Shown: positions 43,262-59,297, counted from the stretch's first letter. The stretch: DNA of 64,000 bases from Sphingomonadales bacterium (GCA_031376385.1 JANMDQ010000018.1:12673-76672); one strand, 5' to 3'. Program-made: numbers and translations. The notes: generated from the sequence alone by a model not told the origin.

Positions 43262-44404
43262 TCACCTAACCAAGCGTCCCCACGTTCGCAATTCGTCGAC
43301 AAACAAATCCGGCACCTCAAACGCGGCGAAATGACCGCCCTTTGGCAATGTGTTGAAGTGGATGAGGTTGGTGTAGACTTTCTCCGCCCAGCGGCGAGAG
43401 GGGCGGAAAATTTCTTGCGGAAACACGCTGATGCCCGTGGGGATTTCCACCTTTGAGGCAGAGAATTGCCCAAAACTTTCCCAGTAAAGCCGCGCGGATG
43501 AAGCGCCGCTGTTGGTGAGCCAATAGAGCATGATATTGTCGAGGATCGCATCGCGGCCAAATGCGCCGTCGGGATCATCGCCTGCATCGCTCCACCCGTG
43601 GAACTTTTCATAAATCCAGGCCGCTTGGCCGACGGGTGAATCCGCAAGGCCGTATCCCAGAGTCTGGGGCCGCGATTTCTGTTGTTGCGCATAGCCGTTT
43701 CCGTCGGTCGCATAGGCTTGCAGGCTGGCGAGTGAGGCTTTCTCCGCGACTGTCATATCGACCATATCTTCGGGCGAAGGACGCGTGACAGCCATGTTGA
43801 CATGGATTGCGGCAAGGCCGGTCGGAGCCTGCGTACCCATCGTCGCAGTGACAGCACTGCCCCAATCTCCGCCTTGTGCCGCGTAATGACCCCCGTAGCC
43901 CAATCGCTGCATCAGTTCCGCCCAAGCGCGACCGATGCGATCCAAATTCCACCCGTTGTGGGTTGGCTTGCCGGAAAATCCATATCCGGGAAGGGACGGC
44001 AAAACGAGATGAAAGGCATCCTCAGCGCGTCCCCCGAACGCAGTCGGATTGGTCAGCGGCCCTACGACATGGCAAAATTCGATGATCGACCCCGGCCAAC
44101 CATGCGTCATGATCAGCGGCAGAGCACCCTCGTGTGGCGACCGGATGTGGCAGAAATGGATATCCAGACCGTCAACTTCCGTGACATGCTGGCCCCAGCC
44201 ATTGAGCATCGCCTCACACCGCCGCCAATCATAATGATGCTGCCAATGATCCACGAGCGCGCGAACCTTGGCGAGCGGCGCGCCTTGCGTCCAATCATCC
44301 ACGCATTCGCGCTCTGGCCAGCGCGTCATAGCAAGGCGCGTTTGCAGGGTGTCGAGCTCCGACTGGTCGATGGCGAGCGTGAAAGCGTGGATCGCGGTGC
44401 TCAT
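43262..44404 (-). CDS. Epoxide hydrolase (EHN + alpha/beta hydrolase)
   Basis: HGWPGS, PSLPGYGFS, QGGDWG, GGHFAAFE. Confidence 0.95.
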   Translation of the reverse strand: MSTAIHAFTLAIDQSELDTLQTRLAMTRWPERECVDDWTQGAPLAKVRALVDHWQHHYDWRRCEAMLNGWGQHVTEVDGLDIHFCHIRSPHEGALPLIMTHGWPGSIIEFCHVVGPLTNPTAFGGRAEDAFHLVLPSLPGYGFSGKPTHNGWNLDRIGRAWAELMQRLGYGGHYAAQGGDWGSAVTATMGTQAPTGLAAIHVNMAVTRPSPEDMVDMTVAEKASLASLQAYATDGNGYAQQQKSRPQTLGYGLADSPVGQAAWIYEKFHGWSDAGDDPDGAFGRDAILDNIMLYWLTNSGASSARLYWESFGQFSASKVEIPTGISVFPQEIFRPSRRWAEKVYTNLIHFNTLPKGGHFAAFEVPDLFVDELRTWGRLVR

Positions 44405-44440
44405 GGGAAAGTTCCTAATAGGTTTGCCTCGAAAGGCCTT

Positions 44441-56823: not shown

Positions 56824-57774
56824 ATGGCAAAGCGTTTCAAAGATGTACCCAATGTGCCGTTCGCGCCGGTGGCCGCCGTGCTGTTCGCGCTGGTCGTAAC
56901 CGCGCTGATGTTTGCGACGCCAGCTTGGCGGCTCGAACGGCTCGTGACCTTTACGGGCCTGTCCGACATTCTTTCGGCTGCGCGTCCGCCACTGGGTGAT
57001 ACAGCGCGCACTTTGATGGCCATCACATCGGGCCTTTTCACCTTCATTTTCCTATGGGCTGTTCTGCGACCGCTTGAAAAGCTCATTCACAATCGCGGCA
57101 GGGGGGCTCTCACGCGCTCTTACACTTTCGGAACGAAGCAAAACGTGGAAACTGCCCCGGTAGCTGCCAACACCAATGCTCCATCGCGCAAGCCGATTTT
57201 TGCAGCGGGAGATTTGGGTGCGCCGCTCATGTCAGATGCGGCTTTGTCCTCCGGGGGGGAGCTGTTTCTTGATGCCGCGATGATTGATGCACCTCTACCC
57301 GGCTCAAACTCAATTCCCGTTGACGCTGAATTACTGCATGATCATCTGCCTGCCGATGATATTCAGCAAATACCTTCGATACTGATCGACACGCCTGAAC
57401 CGGTTGTGGCGGAAACCGAAGTCGCTGCGTTCGAACCAGCCCCACAAGAAACAGTCATTGAATGGCTGTCGCCCGAAAAAGTGGCTGTGCCTGAAATCAT
57501 CGCCCATGAAGTTGCTGAGCCGCTGATGGAACCTTTTGTAGCGCCAGCGCCTGAAGTGGTTCATCCTTCGCCTGCAGAACCTGAGCCGATCTTTCCAGAA
57601 CCTGTATCTGCCGCTGTGCCAGAGCCCACCCTTCGCGAATTGCTTGTGAAGTTTGAGGCTGCGTTGAAGAGGCGTGAAGCCGTGGCAGGTCAGGACCGCG
57701 GTCCGTCGGCACAGATGCCTGAAACCACGGCCCAGTCTTTGCGAGATTTACTGGCCCATGGTCGCTTACGCTGA
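56824..57774 (+). CDS. Membrane-anchored hypothetical protein with acidic Pro/Glu-rich region
   Basis: Two N-terminal hydrophobic segments, PPLGDTAR and PIFA..DLG motifs, low-complexity middle, short C-terminal helices. Confidence 0.7.
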   Translation: MAKRFKDVPNVPFAPVAAVLFALVVTALMFATPAWRLERLVTFTGLSDILSAARPPLGDTARTLMAITSGLFTFIFLWAVLRPLEKLIHNRGRGALTRSYTFGTKQNVETAPVAANTNAPSRKPIFAAGDLGAPLMSDAALSSGGELFLDAAMIDAPLPGSNSIPVDAELLHDHLPADDIQQIPSILIDTPEPVVAETEVAAFEPAPQETVIEWLSPEKVAVPEIIAHEVAEPLMEPFVAPAPEVVHPSPAEPEPIFPEPVSAAVPEPTLRELLVKFEAALKRREAVAGQDRGPSAQMPETTAQSLRDLLAHGRLR

Positions 57775-58044
57775 CTCGACGGTCAGAGCCTCCACCATGA
57801 TGCGCATGGCGGGCCCCGTTAGATCAAGACGCGCCGTAATATCGGCCAGCAGGTGACCGCTGAGTGTGAAGACAGCCTCTGATATCGCGTCCAATTTGCC
57901 TTGTATGCAGCCATTTGGCGCAATCCGTTCAATCGTGACTTCATGCCTGGCCCCCGAAAATGTGATGCTGGCCCATGGGGTGTGGCGACTACCCACCAGC
58001 GCAAATTTGTCGCGACCAAAATAGCCTAGGATGACCGCTATCAG
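57766..58044 (-). CDS. Hypothetical protein (WASITFSGARH motif); start codon uncertain
   Basis: Frame open 57766-58257; plausible folded part begins near DPSRQL; candidate starts ATG 58257, CTG 58044, GTG 57996. Confidence 0.6.
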   Translation of the reverse strand: MIAVILGYFGRDKFALVGSRHTPWASITFSGARHEVTIERIAPNGCIQGKLDAISEAVFTLSGHLLADITARLDLTGPAMRIMVEALTVESA

Positions 58045-58253
58045 TTGACGGCTGGGGTCTCCTTGGCCTGTGGGCGGTCTTGAGCGCTGGCGACTAGATA
58101 AGCCTCGATCCTTATTCGCAAGCGCGGCCCCGGCTGTCGGCCGTTCCGCAAATCCTTCATCAGATTGGGGTCTCGCGCCACGCGACGACCAAATTGGCAG
58201 GGGCGTTCCCTGCTGTCTTTCAGGTGTTGCTCGATTCGCTTCAACAAAATCAT
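58041..58253 (-). CDS. Cro-like small HTH protein
   Basis: 70 aa, LLKRIEQHL...FGRRVARDPNLMKDLRNGRQP; GGAG SD 6 nt before ATG; divergent from the CI-like repressor. Confidence 0.72.
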   Translation of the reverse strand: MILLKRIEQHLKDSRERPCQFGRRVARDPNLMKDLRNGRQPGPRLRIRIEAYLVASAQDRPQAKETPAVN

Positions 58254-58281
58254 ACATGTCTCCATTCCTTCTTCGACTCGT

Positions 58282-58296
58282 GTTCTAGGAATGTTC
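58282..58296. promoter_or_regulatory. Alphaproteobacterial LexA (SOS) box
   Basis: Exact GTTC-N7-GTTC (gttc taggaat gttc), about 30 bp upstream of the Cro-like start. Confidence 0.7.
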
Positions 58297-58350
58297 CTAT
58301 CTCAACATGATTTTCCTACTTGTCTAGGAATATTCTTATCGCTATAGGAT
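58286..58350. promoter_or_regulatory. Operator array of TAGGAA/TTCCTA half-sites
   Basis: TAGGAA-tg-TTCCTA (58286-58299), TTCCTA (58313-58318), TAGGAA-ta-TTCTTA (58325-58338), TAGGAT (58345-58350). Confidence 0.7.
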
Positions 58351-58354
58351 TTTT

Positions 58355-58996
58355 ATGGATAATGTTCGTGAAACGCTGGACCGGTTGATCCGGGAGCAAG
58401 GAGATGACTATGCGTCTATCTCGCGCCTATTGGGTCGTAATGCAGCTTATGTGCAGCAGTTCATCCGTCGGGGAACGCCCCGCAAACTGGATGAAGATGA
58501 CCGCCGCCTGCTCGCGCGCTATTTTGGCGTTGATGAAGGTGTGCTGGGTGGTTTTGGCGCCCCTGTTGTTGCCGCAAAATTTCCTCTGAAACTTGTTCCG
58601 CGCTACGCCCTCGGTGCGTCGGCGGGGCCAGGCAGTCTGCCAGAGGATGAGGCCGCCATGGGCCAAATTGCCTTTGATCCCAAATGGCTCCGCACGCTGG
58701 GCGTATCCGCCACAGTCCTCTCAATGATCCGTGTCACAGGTGACTCTATGATGCCCACCCTGTCTGACGGGGATGAGATCATGGTCGACAGCAGTGACGC
58801 GGCGGAGGCGGTGCGCGATGGTATTTATGTGCTGCGGATGGATGATGCCCTGATCGTGAAGCGGATTGCCCCGAATCCCGCGACGCGGCGCTTTGCCATT
58901 CGCAGCGATAACCCGGCCTATCCCGATTGGCCCGATTGTGATCCTGCTGCCGTTATCATCATTGGCCGCGTCGTCTGGGCTGGGCGCAAGCTTTAG
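58355..58996 (+). CDS. CI/LexA-like repressor (HTH + S24 peptidase)
   Basis: N-terminal HTH (ASISRLLGRN.AY.QQFI.RG.P), ASAG cleavage-type site, GDSM catalytic Ser, VKR catalytic Lys. Confidence 0.93.
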   Translation: MDNVRETLDRLIREQGDDYASISRLLGRNAAYVQQFIRRGTPRKLDEDDRRLLARYFGVDEGVLGGFGAPVVAAKFPLKLVPRYALGASAGPGSLPEDEAAMGQIAFDPKWLRTLGVSATVLSMIRVTGDSMMPTLSDGDEIMVDSSDAAEAVRDGIYVLRMDDALIVKRIAPNPATRRFAIRSDNPAYPDWPDCDPAAVIIIGRVVWAGRKL

Positions 58997-59084
58997 GGTC
59001 AACACTTTATTCACTTAAAAAAATGGCGATGCCTTAGGCACTTCAGGTTAGTACGAAGGCACAATGGAATGTAAGGGTAGCGAC

Positions 59085-59297
59085 ATGACGGAATCTGCAC
59101 TCACGGTGAATCGCACCTCTGCGGATTTGGCAACAGAGATGATGGCTCTGTTCGGGAATGAGGCAGGCGGAGAGGCTGCTCGCCGCGCCAACTACTCCCG
59201 CAATTCTGGTAATGTCGTCGGCTATTGCGCATGGCGTCAGGCGCAGCGGCTTATCATTATTCTGGGGGCTGATGTGTCTGCGGGCACAATTCATTAA
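59085..59297 (+). CDS. Small helical hypothetical protein
   Basis: 70 aa: FG..AG.EAA.RA..SR..GN...YC.WRQ..RLI..L...GTIH; co-oriented downstream of the repressor. Confidence 0.6.
   Translation: MTESALTVNRTSADLATEMMALFGNEAGGEAARRANYSRNSGNVVGYCAWRQAQRLIIILGADVSAGTIH

Follow-up and report, generated by a model that had tools for sequence, protein, structure and literature searches.

A CI/Cro-type regulatory module retained across Sphingomonadales, probably derived from a phage immunity region and predicted to respond to DNA damage

A phage-type repressor and a Cro-like gene between host genes

We analysed a 64,000-nucleotide stretch of DNA, here called the window, from a Sphingomonadales bacterium (GCA_031376385.1, JANMDQ010000018.1:12673-76672). 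It carries a short module in which the gene for a CI-like repressor faces a small divergent operon, cro-dn, and is followed by a further small gene (Table 1). The source genome is a 3.12-Mb metagenome-assembled genome from freshwater sediment, and all evidence presented here is computational; numbers preceded by G, C and L designate our genomes, contigs and loci.

An initial annotation of the window had described a stand-alone CI/Cro switch with no prophage, apparently wired to the SOS response. The parts it named are in place: Pfam and PHROG profiles and motif positions locate the CI-like gene with its ASAG, GDSM and VKR motifs where it had been drawn, and a Cro-like helix-turn-helix (HTH) gene of 70 codons does face it across a short AT-rich spacer, which has 36.6% GC compared with 56.7% across the window. 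The flanks were likewise read correctly as a glycosyltransferase locus and tamAB. The neighbours encode a glycosyltransferase, a 316-aa protein without assigned function (p316), TamA (Omp85) and TamB; host genes abut both ends of the module and no phage genes were called within ~5 kb of it. Integrase, replication, packaging and lysis genes are all missing beside the module, and an Rfam search of the locus gave no match.

Table 1. Positions of the module's genes and sequence features, counted from the first nucleotide of the window.
Feature	Position	Strand	Remarks
CI-like repressor gene	58355-58996	+	213 aa; S24 profile match and motifs
Cleavage site ASA/G (Ala90-Gly91)	58622-58627	+	40 residues before Ser131
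Catalytic Ser131 in GDSM	58745	+	motif position
Catalytic Lys169 in VKR	58859	+	motif position
cro-like gene	58041-58253	-	70 aa; first gene of divergent operon
dn gene	57766-58044	-	92 aa; shortened tail terminator/completion-like protein
ORF163 (spurious)	57766-58257	-	163 aa; gene-finder call, overlaps cro
Small gene 3' of CI	59085-59297	+	70 aa; 77 aa from upstream ATG at 59064
Repressor/cro spacer	58254-58354	.	101 bp
cro-side operator TAGGAATGTTCCTA	58286-58299	.	TAGGA-N4-TCCTA; overlaps likely cro promoter
CI-side operator TAGGAATATTCTTA	58325-58338	.	one mismatch; between predicted -35 and -10 of repressor promoter
Further half-sites	58314 and 58345	.	in spacer
Repressor promoter -35 TTGTCT	58320-58325	+	predicted
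Repressor promoter -10 GCTATAGG	58341-58348	+	predicted
LexA-type box GTTCTAGGAATGTTC	58282-58296	.	GTTC-N7-GTTC; shares bases with cro-side operator
GANTC, CcrM-type methylation site	58275-58279	.	between cro ribosome-binding site and cro-side operator

The repressor matches Peptidase_S24 over residues 88-207 (PF00717, E=1.1e-16) and the PHROG family phrog_4 'transcriptional repressor' over residues 10-212 (E=1.8e-38). Its three motifs are spaced as in LexA. The cleavage motif A-[SA]-A-G-x-G is kept in ~30 of 33 orthologues, the catalytic serine in 32 and the lysine in 31, a degree of retention that points to selection for self-cleavage. Conservation is highest at residues 17-58. By profile and motifs the repressor is of the LexA/CI-type self-cleaving S24 class, and autocleavage stimulated by activated RecA is predicted. 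Among phages, 310 records contain relatives, none reaching 60% identity and all annotated as c repressors. PDB sequence searches with the repressor, Cro and dn proteins gave no meaningful match.

A spurious open reading frame conceals cro and the start of dn

The ATG of cro sits 6 nt after a GGAG ribosome-binding site. The AlphaFold2 (AF2) model of Cro has four helices (pLDDT 82.6), and its best Foldseek matches were the DNA-binding domains of the 434 repressor, the P22 c2 repressor and SinR, together with 434 Cro (TM ~0.6, probability up to 0.96, with E-values that are not significant, as is usual for 55-residue domains). At this place gene finders call a different open reading frame, ORF163, which was present in all 6 contigs looked up (the source genome and five relatives). 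Its last 92 codons are the true dn, and its first 69 overlap cro out of frame. Within the overlap, the ratio of nonsynonymous to synonymous substitution rates (dN/dS) was 0.11-0.14 when read as cro and 1.4-4.8 when read as ORF163, a contrast which identifies cro as the real gene. Among 5.8 billion database proteins there are just three Cro entries, a near-absence explained by the calling of ORF163 in place of cro. Sphingomonad genomes are due for correction on two counts: nearly every public annotation hides cro behind ORF163, and dn starts at the CTG or TTG over the cro stop. Synechococcus phage MinM1 (ON981384.1) provides a viral counterpart, an unannotated 74-aa homologue of the Cro family (L153:3983-4207) that is divergent from the phage's S24-like repressor and lies where the annotated CDS is on the opposite strand.

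In the source genome dn starts at a CTG that runs into the cro stop codon (CTGA); in close relatives the overlap reads TTGA, or dn starts at an ATG 4 nt past the stop. Such stop-start overlap is typical of translational coupling, which it implies here. The initial annotation had placed one unknown gene on the Cro side; one gene there is indeed, and it is a probable relative of phage tail terminator and completion proteins. By itself dn matched no Pfam or PHROG family at E<=0.1. Its counterparts in other families of the order are 122-137 aa long and match PF11367 (Tail_completion_gp17) with E from 5e-5 to 1e-21, two of three above the Pfam cut-off, as well as phrog_176 'tail terminator' (E=2.8e-8). 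Alignment of 19 dn orthologues from the genus with these longer orthologues by hhalign gave a probability of 98.4% (E=5e-15), with ~24 columns of the N-terminal half missing from dn, and both share the core W-x-S-x-T-F-x-G-x-x-H ... G-H-x-(V/L)-x-D ... A-L-T-V. On these comparisons dn is probably a shortened paralogue of the phage tail terminator/completion proteins, isolated from any structural-gene cluster. The statement that no prophage is present holds for today's locus, whereas the tail-terminator paralogue marks the module as a piece of a former phage or phage-like element.

Paired operators are confined to the module

The palindrome reported in the spacer by the initial annotation is real, and a second copy with one mismatch accompanies it: the two TAGGA-N4-TCCTA sites are 39 bp apart within the 101 bp. 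Altogether the spacer holds five TAGGA/TCCTA half-sites against a genome background of 0.054 per 130 bp. TAGGA-N4-TCCTA with at most one mismatch was found at 23 of 24 loci of the genus and at about half of the loci in other genera and families, and half-sites exceed the genome background 40-100 times. The six closest genomes show no variation in the block TCCTACTTGTCTAGGA.

The arrangement of these sites suggests control of both directions of transcription. The TTGTCT and GCTATAGG pair fits a Caulobacter-type sigma-70 consensus and ends 6 nt before the repressor ATG, so that the repressor mRNA is probably leaderless. On the other side, the palindrome overlaps the sole plausible cro promoter that could be predicted. 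A strict E. coli-type sigma-70 scan of the locus returned no promoter, and the promoters remain predictions. The GANTC site at the cro promoter recurs upstream of the repressor in 22 of the 24 genus loci and hints at a cell-cycle or methylation input.

The switch had also been proposed to act in trans on distant targets. The genome scan gave no such targets: the exact operator occurs once in the 3.12-Mb genome, and the module locus is the sole paired site. A repressor regulon beyond its own locus is thus not supported, and the module appears, from the placement of these sites, to regulate only itself and its own small operon. Sites with at most one mismatch number 20 genome-wide, compared with 56-75 in shuffled sequence. 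TAGGA-N4-TCCTA-like sites are accordingly about three times rarer than in shuffled sequence, presumably through avoidance of CTAG-type words, and against this rarity the operator cluster at the module stands out all the more. Two distant near-operators were considered and set aside. One, at C15:483712 by an integrase fragment, looks like chance; the other, TGGGAAAGTTCCTA at 44404-44417 of the window, is one mismatch from the operator and covers the start codon of a 380-aa epoxide-hydrolase-like gene downstream of dxs, and is probably chance as well.

The module is inherited vertically and under purifying selection

Each of the 24 genus genomes has exactly one copy of the repressor, and so do 13 of the 16 genomes that represent nine further families of the order. 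By tblastn, 18 of 19 genus genomes share the layout glycosyltransferase - p316 / dn <- cro / CI -> small gene -> tamA; the nineteenth locus is a fragment at a contig end that is consistent with it, and five metagenomic relatives share it too. In other families the flanks differ, and the core is CI / cro - X - gp17-like or CI / gp17-like. Protein X (150-220 aa, motif RRKRKGWAR; L022-L026), which lies between cro and the gp17-like gene there and has been lost in the genus of the window, belongs to no Pfam or PHROG family.

Distances between repressors correlate with those of the neighbouring tamA (Mantel r=0.77, reached in 0 of 2000 permutations), with the repressor evolving more slowly (mean p-distance 0.37, compared with 0.51 for tamA). 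The coding GC of the module equals that of the genome. All four module genes have dN/dS of 0.05-0.25: 0.05-0.10 for the repressor, 0.05-0.19 for cro, 0.12-0.25 for dn and 0.08-0.12 for the small gene. Fixed synteny in the genus, co-divergence with tamA, host-like GC and these ratios all bear out the domestication proposed in the initial annotation, and within the order we saw neither a patchy distribution with phage genes alongside nor dN/dS near 1, the findings by which that proposal would have fallen. Both the anatomy of the module and its domestication are well supported.

A LexA-type box overlaps the cro-side operator

A second regulatory signal lies at the cro side. The LexA-type box there has the same GTTC-N7-GTTC core as those before lexA (C25:6281) and imuA (C29:9748) in the same genome, and a box with one mismatch precedes recA. 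The box at the module is common to the four closest relatives. Of 24 genus loci, 11 have LexA-type boxes at the start of cro or close to it, some with different spacers, where ~0.005 would be expected per locus. The suggestion that the switch is wired to the SOS response stands at the level of sequence, through the Ala-Gly site and dyad in ~30 of 33 orthologues and through these boxes. A damage-sensing mechanism of this kind is plausible.

Searches with the LexA-type box also brought up a separate element present in 11 copies (for example at C5:34923, C22:78733, C7:95822 and C4:6060). It consists of TTGACA-N9/10-TGTTCATCTAATGTTCC followed by a conserved GCTCTTTGAAACCCTGCCGCC..CGCGCAGCAGAT, and is promoter-like, with a perfect LexA-type box between -35 and -10. 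No conserved open reading frame was found downstream of it, and no Rfam match.

Probable co-option of a phage immunity region

The tail-terminator paralogue and the phage relatives of both regulators indicate that the module was once part of a phage or phage-like element and has been kept since. We consider it probable, at roughly 0.6, that a fragment of a temperate phage or phage-like element, comprising the immunity region and one tail gene, became fixed in the ancestor of the order and now serves as a host module. The repressor would bind the TAGGA-N4-TCCTA palindromes over back-to-back promoters, keeping cro-dn off and limiting its own, probably leaderless, transcript. Upon DNA damage, RecA filaments would stimulate its self-cleavage at Ala90-Gly91 through Ser131 and Lys169. 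In the source lineage LexA would also depart from its overlapping box, leaving the cro-side promoter doubly unlocked. The freed operon would then yield the Cro-type HTH protein and, by termination-reinitiation at CTGA, a little of the tail-terminator-like protein, and Cro probably feeds back on the same operators.

Our best guess for the output is a damage-induced function tied to phage-like particles, whether gene transfer agent (GTA) or phage tails, or else immunity to related phages. A bolder version, which we put forward very tentatively, sees an order-wide second arm of the damage response: a LexA-gated, RecA-cleavable switch would drive a Cro with a distant regulon of its own, and the tail-terminator relic would be re-used, for example in capping or completing GTA or tailocin-like particles or in blocking the tails of infecting phages. 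It might even supply the g8 function where canonical g8 is absent.

Several observations weigh against co-option in this form. The N-terminal domain of the repressor has no Pfam HTH match, although the phrog_4 alignment extends into it. CTG is a weak start codon, so dn may be barely expressed in the source species, and no rationale has been demonstrated for keeping a single truncated tail protein. At the level of the class the repressor family turns up in 34 of 301 genomes (E<=1e-15), a patchy spread with several copies in a few of them, which places the depth of domestication at the order and not the class. Fewer than half of the genus loci have a LexA-type box, and the genome-wide count of such boxes (128) is inflated by the unrelated 11-copy element. 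Finally, a search of sequencing runs found the module in metagenomic DNA runs and in no RNA runs.

Comparison with known switches

Taking over a phage repressor is not in itself without precedent, as RogA, FddR and UmuDAb represent co-opted phage repressors described in a few lineages. What the present case contributes is the retention of a whole CI/Cro core, with its cleavage apparatus and a fragment of a structural gene, across an order that has normal LexA. The module illustrates in compact, natural form how a phage decision circuit passes into the service of a host, and it may add a further layer of SOS control in a group relevant to bioremediation.

To judge from its published description, the closest analogue would be the FddR-type unit of Francisella, where a co-opted phage S24 repressor regulates itself and divergent genes as a self-contained DNA-damage unit (PMC13148647). 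In each case a phage-type S24 repressor has become fixed in a bacterial lineage, its own promoter contains a palindromic operator, and it regulates, here by prediction, both itself and divergent genes. They differ in the operator, GTG-N11-CAC for FddR (PMC13148647) and TAGGA-N4-TCCTA here. Unlike FddR, moreover, the present module is found in a lineage with normal LexA, retains a Cro-type HTH protein and a tail-terminator relic in its divergent unit, and is conserved over an order.

With the CI-Cro switches of lambda, 434 and P22 the module shares an S24 repressor and a small divergent Cro separated by a short AT-rich spacer, repeated palindromes over both predicted promoters and phage relatives of both proteins; the probably leaderless repressor mRNA recalls lambda PRM. 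Unlike those switches, it has no prophage around it, occupies a fixed chromosomal position and is inherited vertically, has two full operators and extra half-sites instead of three operators per side, and has an 'early operon' cut down to cro and a structural-gene fragment. As for dn, it and its longer orthologues have the core motif of RcGTA g8, PF11367 and phrog_176, but dn is ~30-40 residues shorter, falls below the Pfam threshold when taken alone, and lies beside regulators rather than between head-completion and tail-tube genes.

Relation to gene transfer agents

A competing explanation, possible at best, makes the module an accessory of GTAs: a damage-gated tail-terminator paralogue, together with protein X elsewhere, would complete or modulate RcGTA-like particles, and Cro may act on GTA genes. 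Such particles would be at hand, since contig C36 of the source genome carries a complete RcGTA-like cluster (terminase, portal, capsid, tail tube, DUF2460, hub, Rcc01698_C and DUF2793) and contig C15 a gafZ homologue. Moreover, the cluster includes a g8-type gene to which dn is paralogous, and across the order both gafZ and the repressor are common. However, the cluster keeps a PF11367 gene of its own (C36:59542), and the module is kept in 12 of 24 genus genomes without a canonical PF11367 match, including the complete genome G013; conversely, two genomes of one family (f4) have PF11367 without the repressor. Neither the GTA cluster nor the gafZ spacer contains the palindromic operator, the latter holding one isolated half-site, and gafZ has its own conserved divergent XRE partner. 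The initial annotation's suggestion of a GTA as a target of the repressor thus gains no support, as there is no palindromic operator at the cluster or gafZ and gafZ has an adjacent regulator. A looser connection of the module to GTA tails may exist.

The GTA genes themselves have some features of note. The cluster (G000:C36:50176-67800; L160) encodes a 772-aa protein that joins the TIM-barrel domains PF23844/PF23845 to DUF2460, its g15 homologue is short at 728 aa and devoid of GTA_TIM, and a 437-aa gene lies between terminase and portal. We had considered whether the order has no GTA at all, as GTA_TIM (PF13547) is absent from 41 of 41 genomes, yet the source genome has its RcGTA-like cluster; with the TIM barrel of that cluster being PF23845 fused to DUF2460, PF13547 misses the GTAs of this order. 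The gafZ gene (G000:C15:300181-301337; DUF6456, 161 aa) has no adjacent gafY in the genus, and other families have a fused GafA-like protein of 250-320 aa. Wherever examined, including a second member of the genus and another family, gafZ is divergent from a gene for a 187-aa XRE protein. The C-terminal half of this protein resembles a degenerate S24 fold, which makes it the better candidate for a RogA-like GTA repressor. Cro was also considered as the missing GafY and rejected, as the N-termini of fused GafA proteins are unlike Cro and families with fused GafA also have Cro. In G013, the 66 kb around gafZ holds no GTA genes.

Less likely readings: immunity, decay and RogA orthology

We regard as doubtful that the module owes its retention to superinfection immunity, with an orphan repressor kept to silence incoming phages that have the same operators and its neighbours carried along as passengers. 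The repressor family is a common phage c repressor type, outside the order it is patchy and multi-copy as mobile immunity genes are, and temperate phages are a live pressure, as witnessed by a separate prophage with its own CI/Cro on contig C22. Against this, purifying selection acts on Cro, dn and the small gene too. Repressors within the genus are only ~60% identical and yet keep their operators and autocleavage apparatus, where an arms race should diversify specificity, and a cleavable repressor would lose immunity precisely during damage. The prophage-like region (C22:93800-116000; L002) encodes an HK97-type capsid, a PF11367 gene, a 235-aa HTH_3+S24 repressor, a divergent 94-aa HTH gene and a ParB-like protein.

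A neutral, decaying prophage remnant without present function could account for a small island of phage-type genes, for the truncation of dn and its CTG start in the source genome and for the loss of gene X in the genus, but this very improbable reading is already contradicted by the selection and conservation data, namely the low dN/dS, frames intact in every genome examined, order-wide retention with fixed synteny in the genus, and a repressor that diverges more slowly than tamA.

Least probable of all is that the repressor is the sphingomonad orthologue of RogA (CCNA_00080), the Caulobacter repressor of 213 aa with an HTH and an S24-like domain that has lost its catalytic residues and binds GGAA-N4-TTCC at gafYZ (PMC9632790), and that it directly represses gafYZ. 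The two proteins are equal in length and apparently in layout, the RogA site (PMC9632790) resembles the half-sites at the module, and both are host-kept alphaproteobacterial repressors that hold, or in the present case would hold, phage-derived genes silent. Unlike RogA, which binds gafYZ at a distance, the present repressor keeps its catalytic residues and has sites only at its own locus, with no operator at gafZ; RogA homologues are reported to be enriched in Rhizobiales, Rhodospirillales, Rhodobacterales and Caulobacterales, not in sphingomonads (PMC9632790). We searched three Caulobacter genomes with the repressor and with the XRE protein adjacent to gafZ and recovered no orthologue, orthology being judged here without the RogA sequence itself: nothing in Caulobacter sp. 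D5 or KR2-114 matched the repressor at E<=0.01, and AP07 gave a weak match confined to S24 (E=2.9e-5). PF00717 detected in these genomes LexA only, plus at most one other S24 protein in two of them. The lack of a Caulobacter orthologue, a gafZ with its own regulator, and no operator at gafZ or the GTA cluster together make a direct RogA-like role unlikely. The parallel with RogA drawn in the initial annotation holds as an analogy and not as orthology.

The small gene downstream of the repressor

On the CI side, the gene of 70 codons named in the initial annotation has that length if it starts at Met8 (59085), as its orthologues do; these are 67-70 aa long. No PDB fold match was found for the small protein, and its relatives include no Pfam domain. 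They form 188 clusters among 1.84 billion representatives, and the gene adjoins the module at the genus level only. The AF2 model (pLDDT 82.5) predicts a two-helix hairpin.

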